Source: an uncultured Bacteroidales bacterium
Lineage (GTDB): Bacteria > Bacillota_I > Bacilli_A > ML615J-28 > CAG-698
Length of the DNA: 64,000 bases
NCBI GenBank assembly: GCA_964407835.1
Contig: CAYOXB010000001.1
Location: forward strand, 45,174-109,173
Direction of reading: 5' to 3'
The translations under genes were made by a program, and so were the position numbers. Shown piece by piece: positions 15,097 to 55,762 of the stretch (within the stretch, counting starts at the first letter, position 1; every line of letters starts with the position of its first letter). The notes below the pieces were generated by a model. The model was not told where the DNA came from and ran no database searches. It saw only the letters and a list, made by a program, of their open reading frames with translations.

Positions 15097-15107
15097 AATT
15101 ATTGTAA

Positions 15108-15272
15108 ATCTTCAGGGCAGGGTGAGATTCCCGACCGGCGGTAAAGTCCGCGAGCTTGAAAGAGCATGAATTGGTGAAACTCCAATACCGATAGTATAGT
15201 CTAGATGAAAGAAGAGCTATATTTAATATGCTTTTTTTTGCTCGCGAAGTTTTTTCGCGAGTTTTATTTTTT
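15108..15272 (+). promoter_or_regulatory. FMN riboswitch (RFN element) with terminator expression platform
   Basis: Matches the RFN consensus: 'cagggcagggtgagattcccgaccggcggtaaagtccgcgagc...ggtgaaactcc...ccgatagtatagtctagatg'. It is followed by the hairpin 'ctcgcgaagttttttcgcgag' plus TTTTATTTTTT (15241-15271). Confidence 0.85.
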
Positions 15273-22967: not shown

Positions 22968-23029
22968 TCAATAAGATTGACAAGGAACAAAAGAAGTTGT
23001 ATAATAATTAATATAAAACTGTGAAGTGG

Positions 23030-23236
23030 ACAAGATTAATAAAATTTTTATTTATAGCGAAAGTATGATAGTGAAAGATACTTAATAAAACTTATTAGTT
23101 ACTACCGTGGAGTTGAACTCGAAAGAGATTCCGTTATTCAGCGTTAATGAAATTGAGCGCAGTAGTGTTTTTAAACACTATTGAATTAAGGTGGTACCAC
23201 GTTATAATACGTCCTTTTTAGAAGGGCGTTTTTATT
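23030..23236 (+). promoter_or_regulatory. T-box leader (Thr) upstream of thrS
   Basis: Conserved T-box 'aattaaggtggtaccacg' (23184-23201), then the terminator cgtcc/tttttagaa/gggcg plus a T-run (about 23208-23236). Stem I region with ACU/ACC candidates ('ttagttactaccgtgg'). Confidence 0.8.
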
Positions 23237-46984: not shown

Positions 46985-47254
46985 ATGTACCATTCCTTCT
47001 ATAAAACTATTGAATATATTATAACATAAAAAGGCTGAATAAAAAAGCACAAAATATACAATTTTTTTTGTTTTTTTATTGCTAATTTAAAAAAAATATT
47101 CTTAGTTAATTGTTGATTAGGAAAAATTTAACAAGCAAAAACACAATAATAAAGGATTAAAATTATCTTGCATTTTTTAAAAAAATAATATTTGTTAAAT
47201 GGTGGTTCGTTTGGTATAATATAAATACCTATGGAAATAAAAAGGGTGAAAAAT

Positions 47255-50200
47255 ATGGTAAGAGCAGAATACAAAAAATTAAATATTTCTGTTAGAGAAA
47301 GTCATTTAATTGATATTTATTCCGATACTTCTAAATATTTAGAACTTGGAACCATTCATTTCGCTATTTTGAAAAAGTTATTAAAGTATGAACAAATTAA
47401 CTTTAAAGAAATAGCGTTTTTACCCATTCAAAATTTTGGTATAGGAAAAAGCACAATTAATAATGAAAATCTTAAATCTACTATGCCCTATTATTATTTC
47501 AATAATGTTAACCAAAAGAATAAACCTTATCAAGTTTTTTTAACTCATGGATTAATTAGGTATCGTGATTTACAAGATAAAGAAATATTCTCCCCACTGA
47601 TTTTAATACCTGTTGAAATTTTATTTGATGGTGATGAAGTATATATTCAAATGATTTCTGAACCGATTGAGAACAAACCTTTATTAGAGTATTTGGATCG
47701 TGCTAAGAAAATACTTATTCCCAGTGTAGATAAACTTGATACTCTTGGAAATATTGAAAAGTATTTTATGAATATTCTTAAATATAGTGAATTCAATTTC
47801 GAGTTTGAGAACTATATGACTTATGCATATGTCCAAAAACCAGAGATTATTATTAATCAAAATAAGTTTAATTTAAGTAGACAATATGATGACTTCTTAT
47901 ATGAAAATTTATTCAGTGAAGACCATATAGTATTTTATTCAAAAAAACATAATAGAAAACAAAGAAGAGCGCTGATGCAAGCTATTGAAGGCGAATCATT
48001 TGTTATTGCTGGTAGACTTGGAACTGGTAAAACAACAGTAATGAAAGACATTGCTGTGAATGCTATAAGTAGTGGCAAAAGAGTATTATATGTATCTAAT
48101 GTAGATAATACACTTAACGAAGTAAATGAATTTATGAAAGGAAAAGGACTTGGTTATTATGTTACTAATTTCACAAAACCTTTTTCCACATTTTTAAAAT
48201 CTGATGAACTTAAATTTGTTCAAGGAGATTTAACTAGAGCAAGTAATTTTGATAGTTTATTATCAAACTATAAATATATAAATGATTATCAACTAGCAAT
48301 GACAGGAAGAGTACTTGATCATCGCTTTATTGATGTAGTTAATGAACTTATAAACTTAAGTAGAGTCGATAAAGAAAAAATAGAAATAGATAATTTATCC
48401 GATATATACAAACACGAGTATTTAGAAATAGTCGACTCTGTAAAGACAATCCAACAATCTATTGGAAATTTTGATAATTTTAAAGACAGTATTTGGAAAG
48501 ACATTCCAATTATTAATGATATTAAATATCCTAATCAAGTAATGTTTTTGATTCACCAAGTTTATAATGGCTTTGATGAGTTAAAAAAATATAAAGATAG
48601 TTTAATTGAAAATTATAAGTTTGTGGAAATATCTAATTATGCTTTTATGAAAAACATAATTAATAATATAACGCAATTGCCTGTACAAGATGTTCCAAAG
48701 TCTTGGGCTGAACAAGATAATTATGAAAAAGCCAAAACTGAATATCATAATTTAAAGAATTTAATTTTCACATTACAAGAACTTGAATATGATCTTGATA
48801 TAAGGTTTGAGAATTTAGATAAGTTTGAAATTAAAAAAGAGCTAGAGATTTTATATGGTAGTTTCTTCACTAGCGATAATCTTGATAAAATTAATAAAAT
48901 TATAGATGATCGTTTAGAAATTGTTGTTACTTTGAATAAAATAACAATGCAAATCGATATTTTTAATAAAGCAATTCATAAAATTAAAAATGCAATAGAT
49001 TATAATTTTGAACTATCAAACGATGTGCTTAATGAAGTACTTGCAATGTCTCAAACATTATTAGATACAAAAGCAAATTCAAAATTTATTAAAGCAATTG
49101 TGAGAGGTGAATTTGAAAACACTTATAATATTGCAAATAAGTATTTTGATAAGTATAACGATATTAATAACCAAATAGAAAACTTATTTTTAGATCTGGA
49201 ACTTCCTAATATTGAAGAATTAGATATAAAGAATAAAATACAACTTATTATTGATTTTGAAAGAGGATTGAAATTAAAACGACCATATCGTCAAATTGTT
49301 TCAAAGTTAAAAGCAAAAGATATTGAAAACTATAAATCAGTATTAATTAATATTAAAAAATCTCAACAATTAGAAATTGAAAAAGAAGAAGTAGCTGATA
49401 AATTCATAGCACTTTTAGATTGTGAACTAAAAAAAGAATACTTAGATGATTTTAAAAATCTTTATGATTATGTAGAAAATATTGAAGATGCTCATATGAA
49501 GGCAAAGATTTTAAAATCCTTAAGAAGGATTTCTAATTTACATGAAAATCAAACTAAAAATTTCTCTAGAGTTTTAAGTTATTTTATTAAATCACATCAA
49601 AAGATAATAGAGATGTATAAAGAGTTATTGATCCATGAATTTGTCGATGAAAAAAATGAATTTGATGAGATATTAAAAGATATCTATTCAATCAATTCTT
49701 ATATTAAGAAATTGAATGAATCAAATGATACTTTATATTCAATGAAAAAAATAAGCCGTGATGAATATATCAAAGCTCAAGATTATTATTATCTAGATGA
49801 AACATATAATAAAATAGCGGAAGTTAAAGAGGAACTAAAGTTCAATAAAGAATTCCCATATTTGTTTGGTTCGATATATAAAAGACAGGCTACAGATTTA
49901 GCGTATCTTGCTAGAGTTATTCAAGCATATAGACTATATGTAAGTTCATTTGAATCGTATTCTTCTGCGGTGAATAGTTTAAATCCAGAAGTTTATTCAG
50001 GTATAACAAATGTATTAAATAAATCATCTGTTGCTATTGATGATTTAAACGAAGTGTTTAAGCAGTATTTTAAGATTTTCAAAAATTCTGTTTCACAACT
50101 ATACTATGGATTGTTTGATGATAATTTAAGTAATTTATTAATTCAAATGGAAAACAGAGAAGATTTAATTACATATTTGAAAATCACAGATAATTTACAA

Positions 50201-51559
50201 GTTCTTGAAAAATATCATTTATATAAACTCATTGAACATATAGTTAGTATGGAAAGAACAACAACACTATTAACTGATTTTAAATTTACATACTTTTCTA
50301 CATTGAATGATATATATCTAAAGGATAATCAATATTTAAGAGATTATAAAACATTTGAACTTGCTCTTAAAACTACAGTCGAAGTAGAAGAAGAGATTAT
50401 GAGAGCAATAGAAGAAAGAATAGTTAGAAAGATTATTAGACGTAGTGTAAATAAATACAATATGTTTGGGTTTAAACATTTAGATTATAATGCTTATCTT
50501 AAAAAAACAAATAGAATAAAGCACTTAGTTCTTACAAATACTCAAATCTTAAACAATTTTATTGACCCTAATTTATTTGACTTAATATTAATTGATGATG
50601 CCCATATATTCTCAGCTAGTGAGTATGTATATGCACTGGAAGGAAAACAAGTAATAGTTAGTGGTGAGTTGCAATTCCAAGAAGCAGCACTCAACAACTT
50701 GATTTCAAGAATAAGTATGGGTAAGAGTATAGAACTAAATTATAGATACGATATAATACCTAAAGGCTTTAAAGACTTCACACGAAGATTGAAAGCTCCA
50801 ATTTACAATCAATACTATGAAAACTATGGTGTTGAGATTATTGAAAAGGGTATTTATAAATATGTAGCTAATCTTTTTACAATTAATAAAAATTGTAGTG
50901 TTAACTTATTTATAGCTGATGCTGAAGTTCAAAGACAAGCATATGATAAAATAGCTAATTTCTTACTTACAAATAATTTTAAAGAAGAAGAAATTATTGA
51001 GATTTATAAAAGACAACTAAATATAGTTGATTTAAAAAAGGGTTATTTAATTAATGCTAATTATAATGTTTTGTTTATTCAAGATTATTATGAACTTGAT
51101 ACTGAGTATTTGGTTGTTAATATGATCGATAACCTTATCTTAACTAGAAAGAAATTAATCATTTATGATAATAAAGATTTTCTTTCCACAAAATCTAATG
51201 CAATATTCTTAACAGAACTCAATAAGATAATTAATTCAAGAGATGTATTTAAAAAGCCTGAACCTATAGGCACCATTGAAAAACTAATTAGTGCTCTTGA
51301 AGCTGAAGATATAACATGCTTTGCTTCTGAGCTTGGGACATTTATAATAAAAGTAGGTTATAGCTTATACGGTATTACTGTTTATTGGGATTCTAGAAAA
51401 ACAAATTATGATATATTAAATGAATTTAGAGATATTCATTCTCTAAAAGATCCTAGGATCAAGAAAAACATTATTGTCTGGTCAATGGAGTTGATTGAGA
51501 ACTTTGATGGTGTTATTCAAAGAATACTAAAAGAGGTAGCGCATGATTCGGGGAAGTAA
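47255..51559 (+). CDS. Giant Upf1-like SF1 helicase/NTPase (1434 aa from 'MVRAEY'; DUF4011-helicase-like architecture) with an insertion of about 850 aa between motifs I and II
   Basis: Q-motif/Walker A 'QRRALMQAIEGESFVIAGRLGTGKTT' (nt 48011-48037). Motif II/III-like 'LILIDDAHIFSASEYVYALEGKQVIVSGELQ' (nt 50582-). Motif IV-like 'LNYRYDII'. Motif VI-like 'ILTRKKLIIY'. RBS AAAGGGTG before ATG 47255. Confidence 0.6.
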   Translation: MVRAEYKKLNISVRESHLIDIYSDTSKYLELGTIHFAILKKLLKYEQINFKEIAFLPIQNFGIGKSTINNENLKSTMPYYYFNNVNQKNKPYQVFLTHGLIRYRDLQDKEIFSPLILIPVEILFDGDEVYIQMISEPIENKPLLEYLDRAKKILIPSVDKLDTLGNIEKYFMNILKYSEFNFEFENYMTYAYVQKPEIIINQNKFNLSRQYDDFLYENLFSEDHIVFYSKKHNRKQRRALMQAIEGESFVIAGRLGTGKTTVMKDIAVNAISSGKRVLYVSNVDNTLNEVNEFMKGKGLGYYVTNFTKPFSTFLKSDELKFVQGDLTRASNFDSLLSNYKYINDYQLAMTGRVLDHRFIDVVNELINLSRVDKEKIEIDNLSDIYKHEYLEIVDSVKTIQQSIGNFDNFKDSIWKDIPIINDIKYPNQVMFLIHQVYNGFDELKKYKDSLIENYKFVEISNYAFMKNIINNITQLPVQDVPKSWAEQDNYEKAKTEYHNLKNLIFTLQELEYDLDIRFENLDKFEIKKELEILYGSFFTSDNLDKINKIIDDRLEIVVTLNKITMQIDIFNKAIHKIKNAIDYNFELSNDVLNEVLAMSQTLLDTKANSKFIKAIVRGEFENTYNIANKYFDKYNDINNQIENLFLDLELPNIEELDIKNKIQLIIDFERGLKLKRPYRQIVSKLKAKDIENYKSVLINIKKSQQLEIEKEEVADKFIALLDCELKKEYLDDFKNLYDYVENIEDAHMKAKILKSLRRISNLHENQTKNFSRVLSYFIKSHQKIIEMYKELLIHEFVDEKNEFDEILKDIYSINSYIKKLNESNDTLYSMKKISRDEYIKAQDYYYLDETYNKIAEVKEELKFNKEFPYLFGSIYKRQATDLAYLARVIQAYRLYVSSFESYSSAVNSLNPEVYSGITNVLNKSSVAIDDLNEVFKQYFKIFKNSVSQLYYGLFDDNLSNLLIQMENREDLITYLKITDNLQVLEKYHLYKLIEHIVSMERTTTLLTDFKFTYFSTLNDIYLKDNQYLRDYKTFELALKTTVEVEEEIMRAIEERIVRKIIRRSVNKYNMFGFKHLDYNAYLKKTNRIKHLVLTNTQILNNFIDPNLFDLILIDDAHIFSASEYVYALEGKQVIVSGELQFQEAALNNLISRISMGKSIELNYRYDIIPKGFKDFTRRLKAPIYNQYYENYGVEIIEKGIYKYVANLFTINKNCSVNLFIADAEVQRQAYDKIANFLLTNNFKEEEIIEIYKRQLNIVDLKKGYLINANYNVLFIQDYYELDTEYLVVNMIDNLILTRKKLIIYDNKDFLSTKSNAIFLTELNKIINSRDVFKKPEPIGTIEKLISALEAEDITCFASELGTFIIKVGYSLYGITVYWDSRKTNYDILNEFRDIHSLKDPRIKKNIIVWSMELIENFDGVIQRILKEVAHDSGK

Positions 51560-52118
51560 GAGAATATTTAATGATTTTGTGAGAACGGTTAAACAAGACT
51601 CACATCGTTACTACTATATTAAAAGTAATTTATTAAAAATGCGCGAAGAAAACATTGATATAAATACTCAAATATATGGTGGTCAAACATTACTCCATGT
51701 TGCTTTAAAACTAAAAAACATTAGATTATTTAAATTGTTTTTAAAGTATGGAGTAAATCCGGATATTGCCAATGACTTAGGAGAAGCTCCTATTCATAAG
51801 GCCATTTTAAAAAACGAGTTTAATTTCTTAAAAGCCCTTGTAGGAAATGGCTGTGATATTAATCTTGGTGCTGAACTAGAACAAACTCCTCTTCATTTAG
51901 CTGTAATTACAGGTAATGTAGATATTGTTAAGTATTTAGTTGATAATAATGCTAGAATTTTAATTCAAGATGAAAATTATAATTATCCATTAGATTACGC
52001 AATTGATGAAGGAGATTGTGATATAATTAAGTACTTCTTAACTAAACAGGAAGTAGATGAAACAAGAAAAGAAAAAATTAATCAATTGATGGAAAAAGCA
52101 GGTGAAAAAGAATGTTGA
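51543..52118 (+). CDS. Ankyrin-repeat protein (about 4 ANK repeats), translationally coupled to the helicase
   Basis: 'GQTLLHVALK...GVNPDIAND', 'GEAPIHKAILKNEFNFLKALVGNGCDINL' and 'TPLHLAVITGNVDIVKYLVDNNA'. RBS AAAGAGGTA. Its ATG overlaps the helicase 3' end by 17 nt. Confidence 0.75.
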   Translation: MIRGSKRIFNDFVRTVKQDSHRYYYIKSNLLKMREENIDINTQIYGGQTLLHVALKLKNIRLFKLFLKYGVNPDIANDLGEAPIHKAILKNEFNFLKALVGNGCDINLGAELEQTPLHLAVITGNVDIVKYLVDNNARILIQDENYNYPLDYAIDEGDCDIIKYFLTKQEVDETRKEKINQLMEKAGEKEC

Positions 52119-52918
52119 AATTTCAAGAAATTTTGGATATGATTCGCTCTTATACTGGTGAATATTCTGTAATAGGGTTTGTTCGTTTAGGAATTGATGT
52201 ACTATTATTACTAGCAGTGTTATTTATCGTCTATAAGATAATGAAAAAAAGAACACATGGTGTTCGAGTTTTTCTAGTTGTACTTGGAGCTATTGCTTTA
52301 TATGCAGTAAGCTTTGTGTTCCAATTTAAAATGTTTTTAAAGGTATTGGATTATCTTTTCTTTTGGAGTTTAGGAGCTTTGTTAATTGTATATGCTGGTG
52401 AAATTAGACATTCGCTTGATTATTTCTTTGCACCTACAAAGGTGTCAGCTGCTTATTCAAACAAAGAAGAAAAACAAGAAATTATTAGTACATTAGTTTC
52501 AACTGCAGAGTTCTTATCTAAACGTCGTTTGGGTGCTTTAATAACAGTTGAAAGAGAAGACAATCTTAACTCTTATATTGATAAAGCAATTTTCATCAAT
52601 GGAAATGTTTCTCAAGAGTTACTAACTACAATTTTTACTCCAGGTACTGCAGCTCATGACGGTGCTGTAATTATTCGAAAAAGCAAAATAATGTGTGCAG
52701 CTGCCTATTTCCCGTCGACTGATAGATATGATGTTCCAAAATCACTTGGAACAAGACATAGAGCAGCGATTGGAATTAGTGAGAAGACAGATTCACTTAC
52801 TATCGTTGTAAGTGAAGAAACTGGCTTTATTTCTATTGCAATTGATGGTAATATTAACATTAATCAAACAGTTGAAAAACTAGAAGAAATGTTAGATAGA
52901 TATTTAATCAATAAATAA
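52112..52918 (+). CDS. cdaA: Diadenylate cyclase CdaA (c-di-AMP synthase)
   Basis: Three N-terminal TM segments plus DAC domain 'TPGTAAHDGAVIIR...LGTRHRAAIGISEKTDSLTIVVSEETG'. Its start overlaps the ANK stop (ATGTTGA). Confidence 0.9.
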   Translation: MLKFQEILDMIRSYTGEYSVIGFVRLGIDVLLLLAVLFIVYKIMKKRTHGVRVFLVVLGAIALYAVSFVFQFKMFLKVLDYLFFWSLGALLIVYAGEIRHSLDYFFAPTKVSAAYSNKEEKQEIISTLVSTAEFLSKRRLGALITVEREDNLNSYIDKAIFINGNVSQELLTTIFTPGTAAHDGAVIIRKSKIMCAAAYFPSTDRYDVPKSLGTRHRAAIGISEKTDSLTIVVSEETGFISIAIDGNININQTVEKLEEMLDRYLINK

Positions 52919-52939: not shown

Positions 52940-52967
52940 TTGAAAAATATTTAATTTATGATATAAT
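52940..52967 (+). promoter_or_regulatory. Promoter for the PAS/GGDEF-like gene
   Basis: -35 TTGAAA, a 16-nt spacer, extended -10 TGATATAAT. Confidence 0.5.
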
Positions 52968-53051
52968 GTGAATATATAGAAGGCTAAAAGGATAGAAAGA
53001 ATTTGGTTTAATTACCAAACTAAAAATTAGAAAAGATTAAAGGTGGATTAT

Positions 53052-54554
53052 ATGATTCCAGAATTAGTAGAATTAGTAAAAGAATATTATTATTTATTGT
53101 TTGTTGCTGGTCTAATTGTTATGTTTTTCTTAGTTTTAAGTATTTTACTTAATAAGAAAAAAGCAGCAATTGTTCCAGGAAGCCTTTTTGCTGTATATGC
53201 TATCCTATTTACAGTTTCTGTCTTCTATAAAGAAAAATTAACAGGTAGAATTATTTTAGCTTTTGGCATATATGTATTCCTTGAAGGAGTCTTTACCTTA
53301 GTTATGGCCACAATTTCATATCTTGAAAAACGTAAGTTTAATTTATTGTTTCAATTATCATCTTCGATTGATAGTGCGATATTAGTTTATTTAAATGAAA
53401 AAGGTGAAATAGTATTTTTCACAAAAGAATTCTTAAATATGTTTGATGTTAACAATGCAAAAGACTTTGAACAAATAGTAAAATATGTTCATTTAGGCGA
53501 AAGACAAATGTCATATAAGGCGTTTTTAAAAATCCTAACTTATGAAAAAGAAGAAGACTATGCACTCATTATTGATTTATTTAATACTAAAGAAAAAAGA
53601 TTGCATGTATCTAAAAGAAAGATTATCAATAATGGTAAATTACTTGGTTATGTATTAATCAATAAAAAGGATCAAGTATTCCAAGAAGATACACCAACAA
53701 CATATCAAGTTGATGCAATTAACTTAGTTAATGAAGCACTTGCTATTTATGAAAGTGATAATAATAAACTACTAATTAATAATAAAATGCAAAACTTACT
53801 CGGTGTAGATAGTGTAAATAGTTTAGATGAATATATTTATGCTGAAGATAAAAAGCAAATTGAAAAAAGAGCAAGAGCAGAAGGCGAAAAATCTAAGATT
53901 TACTATCGCATTAATGCTCAAAACAATCGTGTATGGGTTTTAGAGACTTGTACAATTGCTAGGGGCAAATTAACTAAAGTAGTTAGAGAAACAGACTTTA
54001 AAAACTTAATTTATAATTTTAGAGATTATTCTAAAATGGTTCAAGAATTAGAGCATAATATAGCAATGAGTACAAATTTTGCTTTAGTCTTTGTAACTCT
54101 ACATACACTTACTCAAATAAAAGAAAAAATTGGTAAAGATGCTTCAATGGTTCTTGCTACGCAATTCTTTATTAATTTAAATAATGAAATTAAAGATTTA
54201 AAAGTATTTGAAATAGGTTATTATAAATTTGCATTCTTTATTAAAAATGAAGCTGCATATAAAAATATTTTAAGAGATCTTAATAATAATGCTTCTAGAC
54301 TGCAAAAGACAAAAATTATATTTAATGATTTAGCATTTGAAATCAAGACTTATTTAGGGCTTGTGGAAAGCAAAAATGTTCTTAATCCAACGCCTGAATT
54401 AATGATTGAAGCTGCAGAAGGTGCATTAGAATTAGCTTCTAATAAAAACTATCCGAAAGACTTTAGCATTTATATTTCTAAAGTTAAAGAATTAGAAGGC
54501 GAAGAGAGAGAAATAGACTTAAGTGATGATTTTCTACAAAGGATTATGAAGTAA
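53052..54554 (+). CDS. Membrane-anchored sensor-like protein: 3 TM segments, PAS-like region(s), C-terminal degenerate GGDEF-like domain
   Basis: Hydrophobic N-terminus. PAS-like 'SSIDSAILVYLNEKGEIVFFTKEFLNMFDV'. Cyclase-fold-like 'ALVFVTLHTLTQIKEKIGKDASMVLATQFF...VFEIGYYKFAFFI', where YYKF replaces GGDEF. No YbbR repeats are visible, so it does not look like CdaR. Confidence 0.45.
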   Translation: MIPELVELVKEYYYLLFVAGLIVMFFLVLSILLNKKKAAIVPGSLFAVYAILFTVSVFYKEKLTGRIILAFGIYVFLEGVFTLVMATISYLEKRKFNLLFQLSSSIDSAILVYLNEKGEIVFFTKEFLNMFDVNNAKDFEQIVKYVHLGERQMSYKAFLKILTYEKEEDYALIIDLFNTKEKRLHVSKRKIINNGKLLGYVLINKKDQVFQEDTPTTYQVDAINLVNEALAIYESDNNKLLINNKMQNLLGVDSVNSLDEYIYAEDKKQIEKRARAEGEKSKIYYRINAQNNRVWVLETCTIARGKLTKVVRETDFKNLIYNFRDYSKMVQELEHNIAMSTNFALVFVTLHTLTQIKEKIGKDASMVLATQFFINLNNEIKDLKVFEIGYYKFAFFIKNEAAYKNILRDLNNNASRLQKTKIIFNDLAFEIKTYLGLVESKNVLNPTPELMIEAAEGALELASNKNYPKDFSIYISKVKELEGEEREIDLSDDFLQRIMK

Positions 54555-54571
54555 TTTAAGTTTTCAAATCG

Positions 54572-54600
54572 GGACTAATTAATTAGTCCCTTTATTTTTT
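54572..54600 (+). terminator. Terminator
   Basis: gggactaatt/aattagtccc followed by TTTATTTTTT. Confidence 0.8.
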
Positions 54601-54613
54601 AAAGAGGTATGAT

Positions 54614-55762
54614 ATGTTTGATGTTATTTTATTAATTGCTGGAAAAGGCAAGAGAACAAAATTAGATTATAATAAAACTCTATACTTGATTAATGATAAA
54701 CCTATATTTAAGTATTCACTTGATATCTTTTTAAAGATGAAAGAATTGAATAAGGTTGTTTTAGTCATTGATAAAGAAGATGAAGATATTGTAAATGAAT
54801 ATATTAAAGATATAAATTCTAATAAAATTGAAATAGTATATGGTGGACTTGAAAGACAAGATAGTGTAAAAAATGGAATCGATAAATGTTCAAGCGATGT
54901 TGTTTTAATTCACGATGGTGCAAGAGCATATATAGAAGAAGGACAAGTTCAAAGTGTTTATGATAATGCTAGAAGATATAATGCTTCTGCTTTAGCAGTA
55001 AAAACTACGGATACTATAAGAGAATTAAAAAAAGGCTCTTCAAACATTGTTGATCGCAATTTACTTTGGAATATGCAAACGCCACAAGGTGTTAATTTAC
55101 AGATGTTTAAAGAAGCTCTTAAAAAAGCATATGAAGATAATTATTATGGAACAGATGATTTAAACTTACTTGAAAAATATTTTGATATTGTACCTAAGCT
55201 TGTAGAAGGAAGTAAAAAGAATCTAAAATTCACAACAATTGATGATTTAGATTATTTAAAATTTATATTAGGAGAGCAAAAGATGGAATATAGAATAGGT
55301 CATTCTAATGATACTCATCGTTTAGAGGCGGGAAGAAAGTTAATCTTAGGTGGAGTTGAGATAGACTATCATTTAGGGCTAATTGGTCATTCTGATGCTG
55401 ATTGTATTTATCATGTTGTAAGCGAAGCTATTATAGGTGCTCTAGGACTTGGTGATATTGGAAGTCATTTTCCGGATAATGATAAAAAATACAAAGATCA
55501 AGACTCTAGTTATTTTGTTGTTGAAGCAAGGAAGTTAATGGAAAAGGAATTATATATTATCAATAATTTAGACTTGATTGTTTATGCAGAGAATGTTTAT
55601 TTAAACCCTCATATAAATACAATAAGAGATAATATTGCGAAGCTTTTGATCTGTGATAAATCAAGAATTAATATAAAAGCAACAAGAAGAGAAAAGCTAG
55701 GGTTTGTTGGTAGAGAAGAAGGAATATCAGCTGAAGCAGTAGTTTTGCTGAAAAAGAAGTAA
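54614..55762 (+). CDS. ispDF: Bifunctional MEP cytidylyltransferase / MEcPP synthase (IspDF)
   Basis: IspD N-half 'ILLIAGKGKR'. IspF C-half 'RIGHSNDTHRL...GHSDADCIYHVVSEAIIGALGLGDIGSHFPD'. Confidence 0.9.
   Translation: MFDVILLIAGKGKRTKLDYNKTLYLINDKPIFKYSLDIFLKMKELNKVVLVIDKEDEDIVNEYIKDINSNKIEIVYGGLERQDSVKNGIDKCSSDVVLIHDGARAYIEEGQVQSVYDNARRYNASALAVKTTDTIRELKKGSSNIVDRNLLWNMQTPQGVNLQMFKEALKKAYEDNYYGTDDLNLLEKYFDIVPKLVEGSKKNLKFTTIDDLDYLKFILGEQKMEYRIGHSNDTHRLEAGRKLILGGVEIDYHLGLIGHSDADCIYHVVSEAIIGALGLGDIGSHFPDNDKKYKDQDSSYFVVEARKLMEKELYIINNLDLIVYAENVYLNPHINTIRDNIAKLLICDKSRINIKATRREKLGFVGREEGISAEAVVLLKKK

Follow-up and report, generated by a model that had tools for sequence, protein, structure and literature searches.

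A degraded DUF4011-class helicase relative encoded in a conserved ankyrin–cdaA gene block of metagenome-assembled Bacilli

What might a 1434-residue helicase-like protein do when its gene is set among housekeeping genes? The question is raised by a plus-strand gene at positions 47255–51559 of a 64,000-nucleotide stretch of contig CAYOXB010000001.1 (the window), which is ~29% G + C and carries the housekeeping genes polA, thrS, rpsB, dxr, rseP, proS, nrdJ, hflX and ispDF. A sequence-only reading of this DNA had described the product, hereafter the giant protein, as a Upf1-like superfamily 1 (SF1) helicase with an anomalously long insertion, non-canonical motifs and an implied defense role. Its relatives are annotated only as "hypothetical protein" or "DEAD/DEAH box helicase". 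We find that the giant protein belongs, close to certainly and in a degraded form, to the Upf1-like SF1B helicase-nucleases of the DUF4011 class, which are widespread and very large proteins for which we know of almost no mechanistic description beyond the anti-phage phenotypes of a few. From sequence comparison and gene neighborhood we favor, with moderate confidence, a lineage-specific, vertically inherited and catalytically degraded protein that would act with an ankyrin-repeat partner as an ATP-binding switch or scaffold, with an output bearing on the diadenylate cyclase CdaA.

Class membership and domain layout

Residues are numbered here from position 47231, the first base of the open reading frame (ORF); subtracting 8 gives the numbering of the sequence-only reading. 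That reading had proposed a DUF4011-type layout, to be checked against Pfam and PADLOC, and the profile searches bore it out. Pfam DUF4011 (PF13195) matched residues 102–154 of the giant protein at E 0.043, and residues 240–315 gave sub-threshold Pfam AAA_11, AAA_30 and DEAD matches with the giant protein alone as query. Across the family, DUF4011 was matched at E ≤ 0.01 by 7 of 33 members (best 1.2e-5) and AAA_11 by 23 of the 33; precomputed PF13195 matches are present for P0066 and P0067. The PADLOC profile PDC-S37 aligned with residues 244–527 at 1.4e-20, a region that includes the first ~200 residues of the insert described below. Two NCBIfam profiles also matched, ProA (NF058533) at 4.3e-18, with 64.2 bits against an equivalog cutoff of 1500, and Hhe (NF042953, "DUF4011 domain-containing anti-phage protein") at 8.9e-7, with 26.6 bits against a cutoff of 2000.

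Profile comparisons place the whole protein, and not just one domain, in this class. The family profile retrieved canonical proteins with the architecture DUF4011 + AAA_11 + AAA_12 + MTES_1575, with or without DUF3320, of 1400–2400 residues at E 1e-40 to 1e-6. Scores were at least 926 bits inside the giant-protein family and at most 154 bits beyond it. When the family was aligned with 39 canonical proteins by hhalign (probability 100, E 1.8e-49), the match spanned 1132 columns and residues 85–1436, was collinear, and stayed in register across the insert and on into the C-terminal domain. Indeed, P122 and N148 are invariant both in the giant-protein family and in the canonical DUF4011 group.

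The giant protein thus divides into the following regions, all within its gene:

47288..47845 (+), N-terminal DUF4011 domain, residues ~20–205
47948..48217 (+), N-terminal part of RecA-like domain 1A, with the Q-motif (Q244), Walker A (G261–T268) and motif Ia (VLYVSN)
48218..50485 (+), all-alpha insert of ~756 residues in domain 1A (residues 330–1085), with a homologous insert in canonical DUF4011 helicases
50486..51175 (+), C-terminal part of domain 1A (motif II, FDLILIDDAH; motif III, VIVSGELQ) and RecA-like domain 2A, with motif IV RY and degenerate motifs V and VI
51263..51550 (+), inactivated C-terminal relic of an MTES_1575/Vsr-like nuclease, residues 1345–1440, with an alpha-beta-beta-beta-alpha-beta-alpha pattern

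The DUF4011 N-terminal domain is therefore accompanied by a Upf1-like SF1B core in which a long helical insert interrupts domain 1A, and the SF1B topology is evident from two RecA-like domains together with motifs Q, I, Ia, II, III and IV. The ORF translation holds all the motifs that had been quoted from it, namely "QAIEGESFVIAGRLGTGKTT" with K267, "LILIDDAH" with D1122/D1123, "VIVSGELQ" and "ILTRKK". The assignment to SF1, which a chance P-loop would have undone, also stands. Against sequences in the PDB the family profile aligned both motif I and motifs II/III of IGHMBP2 (E 2e-9), the two motif blocks are conserved in 64 homologues, and the AlphaFold model (mean predicted local distance difference test score 86.5) matched SETX, Dna2 and UPF1 in Foldseek. 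Both RecA-like domains are confidently modeled and superpose on active helicases. Among solved structures we found no relative of the N-terminal domain.

We considered and rejected a RadA-, KaiC- or DnaB-like identity, which P-loop matches and a position following clpC had suggested, as the fold and the profile-profile evidence both indicate SF1B. The Pfam KaiC and NCBIfam DnaB/PRK05973 matches cover only residues ~208–306 around the P-loop. RadA/Sms is a protein of ~450 residues with a C4 zinc finger, a RecA-like ATPase bearing a KNRFG motif and a Lon-protease-like domain; Pfam and NCBIfam scans of the giant protein revealed no domain of zinc-finger, RadA or Lon-like type, though KNRFG as such was not searched for.

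The size of the insert had been taken as an anomaly. The spacing itself was well estimated, as the interval from K267 to D1122 is 855 residues against the ~857 first given, and motifs I and II of IGHMBP2 are only ~150–180 residues apart. However, canonical P0069 has ~905 residues between K305 and D1210 (motif II from ~1205), longer than in the giant protein. The very long helical insert is thus a feature of the whole DUF4011 class and is not peculiar to this protein. The insert had further been described as alpha-helical and rich in K, E, N, I and L. The first part of that description holds, with 74% helix and ~1% strand between residues ~330 and 1085 of the AlphaFold model. By contrast, these five residues make up 49% of the insert and 47% of the rest of the protein, and their abundance therefore reflects an AT-rich genome and nothing specific to the insert. 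Within the insert, W492 (in "P.SW") and Y824 are invariant in the 64-sequence alignment, and P489, E396 and T888 are nearly so.

Lost and retained catalytic features

Catalytic motifs were compared by counting residues in alignment columns of the 64 family members and setting them, through the hhalign register, against the consensus of the 39 canonical proteins. The nucleotide-binding elements are retained. At 17–52% identity, G261, G266, K267 and D1122 are invariant and Q244, T268, D1123, Q1140, G1145 and R1172 are nearly invariant, such that the Q-motif, the GxGK[TS] signature, motif Ia and the Mg-binding Asp are all invariant or close to it. The Arg of motif IV, canonically "WHYRSRHE", is kept in 59 of the 64.

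The elements of hydrolysis and coupling have fared differently, and the helicase motifs of canonical proteins (DEASQ, GD.KQLPP, VQGDERD and RRLNVAITRAK) are not intact in this family. Motif II, "FDEASQ" with an invariant Glu in the 39 canonical proteins, reads DDAH, and the D1123 column holds Asp in 62 sequences and Glu in one. Motif III is "AGE.Q" (Gly in 63, Gln at Q1148 in 45) where canonical proteins have "GD.KQLPP". The canonical motif V, "NVQGDERD", has no counterpart. Motif VI, canonically "RRLNVAITRAK", is "LLLCKK" in the family and "LTRKK" in the giant protein, and position 1306 is K in 32 and R in 18 of the sequences, such that most members lack the motif VI Arg.

The C-terminal domain is homologous to the MTES_1575 nuclease and has its Vsr-like fold pattern, but lacks the catalytic Asp/Glu/Asp set. 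At these positions, canonically "RID...IECDG", the family has Asp in 14, Glu in 4 and Asp in 31 of the 64 members, and the giant protein has T, Y and D. Pfam PF18741 (MTES_1575) matched none of the family members scanned. The sequence-only reading had seen no nuclease in the C-terminus, which is right as to function, the last ~100 residues being a relic of the domain with its catalytic positions replaced. The DUF3320 domain, for which a search had been suggested, is absent; the protein ends ~2 residues past the nuclease-like domain, and of the 1613 template columns hhalign matches none beyond column 1404.

On a plain reading of these columns, nucleotide binding would be kept, hydrolysis and its coupling attenuated or lost, and the nuclease dead. 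Motif V couples ATP to nucleic acid, and with neither the catalytic Glu nor motif V the protein is predicted to be impaired in ATP-driven 5´-3´ translocation or unwinding. The non-canonical motifs are conserved family-wide, making the earlier suggestion of an altered or regulatory ATPase a plausible one.

Conservation and gene neighborhood

A word-indexed search recovered 68 relatives, almost all of 1373–1442 residues and 23–53% identical over 99% of the length, from metagenome-assembled genomes (MAGs) of Bacilli or Acholeplasmataceae. In an exhaustive phmmer search of 1.84 billion cluster representatives, 199 proteins matched at E ≤ 1e-3, of which 59 reached E ≤ 1e-30, and the full-length ones were collinear. 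The giant proteins thus form a separate, small and coherent family of ~100 representatives among the 1.84 billion. Among 185,579 species, each scanned through a single genome, 67 had a member of the family, all of them MAGs labeled Bacilli, Acholeplasmatales, Mollicutes or Anaeroplasma. Exceptions were a few bins labeled Bacteroidales, Prevotella or Staphylococcaceae and one weak match, to the P-loop only, in a Chloroflexota MAG. The Bacteroidales, Prevotella and Staphylococcaceae labels belong to records whose loci are of the Bacilli/Acholeplasmatales type (L018, L021, L023, L032, L052, L054, L056, L058 and L067) and are probably taxonomic mislabels or mis-binned contigs. Collections of 72,556 plasmids and 50,697 phages yielded no relatives.

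So many enzymatic motifs are degraded that the gene could be imagined to be a functionless, decaying remnant, a long pseudogene-like ORF. Its conservation makes this a negligible prospect. The 4.3-kb frame is open in every species, and apart from the most distant representatives, which reach ~1510 residues, lengths stay at 1373–1442 residues (within ~5%) across 17–53% identity. G40, P122, N148, T197, G261, G266, K267, W492, Y824 and D1122, which are distributed over all domains, are invariant in the 64 sequences, and ~45 further positions, again in all parts of the protein, are at least 90% conserved. Invariant residues throughout a protein of constant length exclude decay, and the idea is effectively refuted.

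The plus-strand ORF spans 47231–51559 (1442 codons, open from 47231), and ATG 47255 is the preferred start, giving 1434 residues up to the TAA stop at 51557–51559. This start is favored over 47231 because a promoter-like site sits so near the latter, the last base of its TATAAT (47215–47220) being only 10 nt short of 47231, although such consensus matches are no commoner in this AT-rich DNA than in shuffled sequence. In addition, AAGGGTGA is positioned 7 nt 5´ of ATG 47255, and the public gene call P0001 is likewise a protein of 1434 residues starting at 47255, the start and length first assigned. An alternative genetic code was considered and rejected, as ORFs under table 11 are long and dense and the ankyrin gene ends in TGA.

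The genes and sites immediately around the giant gene are as follows:

47192..47220 (+), promoter-like site upstream of the giant gene, a consensus match of TTGTTA, 17 nt and TG-extended TATAAT
51543..52118 (+), ankyrin-repeat protein of 191 residues, whose start overlaps the giant gene end by 17 nt, with ribosome-binding site AAAGAGG within the giant gene
52112..52918 (+), diadenylate cyclase CdaA of 268 residues, whose start overlaps the ankyrin TGA stop by 7 nt; TIGR00159 at 204.7 bits against a cutoff of 188.8, and Pfam DAC
53043..54554 (+), membrane protein of 503 residues with N-terminal transmembrane helices, a weak PAS_3 match (E 0.047) and its own promoter-like site at 52940–52967

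The sequence-only reading had suggested an analysis of neighborhood conservation, which revealed one conserved block in the 67 MAG species. It reads (clpC-like)–giant–ankyrin–cdaA–(membrane protein)–ispD/ispF, preceded by a divergently oriented hflX, and this order is kept in essentially every sufficiently long locus, even where the giant protein has as little as 22% identity. The ankyrin gene lies directly 3´ of the giant gene in 62 of 67 loci that reach past the giant 3´ end (these being all fetched loci, two copies of the window's own contig among them), and cdaA is adjacent in all loci long enough to show it. Projected gaps range from -17 to +5 nt between the giant and ankyrin genes, in the 46 measurable loci that carry the latter, and mostly from -22 to +26 nt between ankyrin and cdaA, with one anomalous locus. 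The ribosome-binding sites of both ankyrin and cdaA fall within the preceding genes. The persistent frame overlap of the three genes argues for co-translation rather than mere neighborhood. No terminator-like site was found between the giant gene and 54571; the first one, at 54571–54590, follows the gene for the 503-residue membrane protein, which may therefore be the last gene of the unit.

Ankyrin proteins of bacteria are usually secreted effectors, and a housekeeping one is unusual. Here a cytoplasmic ankyrin protein of 191 residues is a conserved core gene, coupled in translation to both of its neighbors, in MAGs of free-living or commensal Bacilli type. The 503-residue protein is kept 3´ of cdaA in many related loci at 19–52% identity and stands where other Firmicutes have cdaR after cdaA, or yacL in a clpC operon. 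Its identification as CdaR or YacL was nevertheless rejected, since it matches neither YbbR, PIN nor TRAM and gave only the weak PAS_3 match. The protein as a whole has no Pfam or NCBIfam family; by eye, its C-terminal part resembles a degenerate GGDEF domain ("GYYKF").

On the other side of the block, 18 of 43 loci have a short ClpC-like gene directly 5´ of the giant gene, an arrangement that is probably ancestral, as the most divergent loci are among those that show it; the window lacks the ClpC-like gene, and nrdJ abuts the giant gene there. The encoded ATPase (Clp_N + AAA + AAA_lid_9 + AAA_2, ~550–650 residues) is exemplified by L003 (5719–7677) and occurs also in L004, L007, L011–L016 and L050–L056. 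Downstream, the window has a single bifunctional ispD–ispF fusion gene (54614–55762, +), as do L006 and L007; L003 and L004, which belong to the same clade, have two separate genes. Elsewhere in the window, a flavin mononucleotide (FMN) riboswitch 5´ of an ORF of 326 residues and a T-box leader 5´ of thrS (15104–15220 and 23012–23219, +) both exceed Rfam gathering thresholds.

This setting bears on the defense role implied by the sequence-only reading. A rival explanation along these lines is that the locus still works against phages or mobile elements in the manner of Hhe, ProA and PDC-S37, with a helicase-like sensor and an ankyrin or cyclic di-AMP (c-di-AMP) signaling effector, and has become fixed in the chromosome of this clade. 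The only profiles of named function that match are defense models, namely these three, and the giant protein diverges faster than its neighbors, with 49% identity in L003 as compared with 71–77% for ank, cdaA and nrdJ. Yet the ProA and Hhe scores fall far under their equivalog cutoffs, and the nuclease effector is inactivated. The variable or mobile context and patchy distribution of defense systems are not seen. The gene has a single fixed locus in 67 species, a housekeeping block with no integrase, transposase or other defense gene nearby, and has no counterpart among the plasmids and phages searched. One fixed housekeeping locus and no plasmid or phage relatives together indicate a vertically inherited core gene rather than one from a defense island, and we judge a defense system highly improbable. 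In the literature we came upon no work that treats ProA as an anti-phage helicase, none on PDC-S37 and none that pairs CdaA with ankyrin, and publications on Hhe and DUF4011 simply list the gene.

Proposed function and comparison with known systems

How, then, might the giant protein work? In the scheme that we favor, it would still bind ATP and hydrolyze it slowly or not at all, and would serve as a clamp, switch or scaffold that binds nucleic acids in a nucleotide-dependent way, instead of as a processive helicase-nuclease. Bound ATP with little or no turnover would suit such a mode, and the conserved and degraded motifs make a switch or scaffold likely. Ankyrin repeats are protein-protein adaptors, and the giant protein may form a complex with its co-translated ankyrin-repeat partner. 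The output of this complex might in turn bear on CdaA and thus on c-di-AMP synthesis. This last step is the weakest and only a lead, because hflX, nrdJ and ispDF are equally syntenic.

Several observations weigh against this scheme. Asp can sometimes replace a catalytic Glu, position 1306 of motif VI is basic (K/R) in 50 of the 64 family members, and 45 of them keep the Gln of motif III; taken together these features would permit a real, if slow, ATPase or translocase. The predicted template modeling score of the AlphaFold model is 0.57, which leaves the arrangement of its domains uncertain. Three lineages clearly have no ankyrin gene and keep the giant gene and cdaA ~50 nt apart, and two more loci gave no ankyrin match; the giant proteins of the ankyrin-less P0042, P0044 and P0045 differ from the rest by indels of 3–8 residues only, with no telling pattern. 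Finally, adjacency to cdaA does not by itself prove a functional link to the cyclase, since synteny is just as strong for hflX, nrdJ and ispDF.

Some of these points would fit a working housekeeping helicase or translocase, in DNA repair, replication restart or RNA metabolism, for which DDAH, GE.Q and the Lys of motif VI still suffice and for which cdaA is a neighbor by inherited gene order. The conservation of Q244, K267, T268, D1122, R1172 and motif Ia, the mostly basic position 1306, Q1148 in 45 of 64, two RecA-like domains that superpose on active helicases and flanking genes that are all housekeeping would be expected of such an enzyme. However, the catalytic Glu that is invariant in canonical relatives is absent from 63 of the 64 sequences, motif V has no counterpart, and the overlap of the giant, ankyrin and cdaA frames persists across the clade. 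We therefore regard a working helicase as unlikely, though deserving of serious consideration, and retain the ATP-binding switch or scaffold as the favored function.

A bolder proposal extends the switch or scaffold into an evolutionary scenario. An ancestor of the Acholeplasmatales-like Bacilli might have domesticated a DUF4011 helicase-nuclease, which would have lost both activities and, together with a dedicated ankyrin adaptor, might sense the state of nucleic acids and control CdaA, so taking the role of RadA–DisA, which in other Firmicutes links DNA integrity to c-di-AMP, at the same slot (clpC, x, DAC, membrane protein, ispDF). We offer this analogy as a speculation that is improbable in its full form.

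The family represents a natural experiment in which a scaffold of DUF4011 domain, helical insert and P-loop has been kept under selection and the helicase and nuclease chemistry shed, and such a conserved scaffold shows which parts carry non-enzymatic function. It also places a class that includes anti-phage proteins among the fixed core genes of genome-reduced bacteria. The DUF4011 class itself is known; what is new is an unannotated, narrowly distributed and degraded family of these helicases locked in an ankyrin–CdaA operon. CdaR and GlmM are known regulators of CdaA, and a complex of the giant protein, ankyrin and CdaA, if real, would be a regulator of a new type and would offer a second way for nucleic-acid status to reach c-di-AMP.

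The closest known systems are the canonical DUF4011 helicase-nucleases, Hhe, ProA and PDC-S37 included. The giant-protein family shares with them a collinear domain order, a DUF4011 N-domain with invariant Pro and Asn, the Walker A block "G.SF.I.G..GTGK", a helical insert of ~760–900 residues before motif II, RecA2 and the Vsr-like C-terminal fold. It differs in having DD rather than DE in motif II, in the loss of motifs V/VI, the nuclease residues and the DUF3320 tail, and in length (~1430 residues as compared with 1460–2400). By contrast with its fixed core locus with ankyrin and cdaA, canonical helicases occupy variable or mobile contexts; in Anaeroplasmataceae and other MAGs they lie beside a phage-type integrase (L075, 8001–13559) or as a tandem pair by a PLD nuclease (L076, 8001–16843). 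Among Upf1-like SF1B proteins (UPF1, IGHMBP2, SETX/Sen1, Aquarius, ZNFX1 and DNA2), accessory domains are likewise inserted in domain 1A, and with IGHMBP2 the Q-motif, motifs I and Ia and the spacing of motifs II/III align. The insert of the giant protein, however, is ~5 times longer and purely helical, and its catalytic Glu and motifs V/VI are degenerate.

The corresponding slot in Bacillus holds the DNA-repair nucleoside triphosphatase RadA and the DNA-scanning diadenylate cyclase DisA, with ispD–ispF following yacL in B. subtilis. Published gene orders for Bacillus are ctsR-mcsA-mcsB-clpC-radA (PMC11594194) and radA-disA-yacL (PMC6755099). The likeness of the giant–ankyrin–cdaA block to this RadA/Sms–DisA module (clpC-radA-disA-yacL-ispD-ispF) is positional only: the giant protein is an SF1 helicase relative and not RecA/DnaB-like, the cyclase is the membrane protein CdaA and not DisA, and an ankyrin protein is interposed between them.

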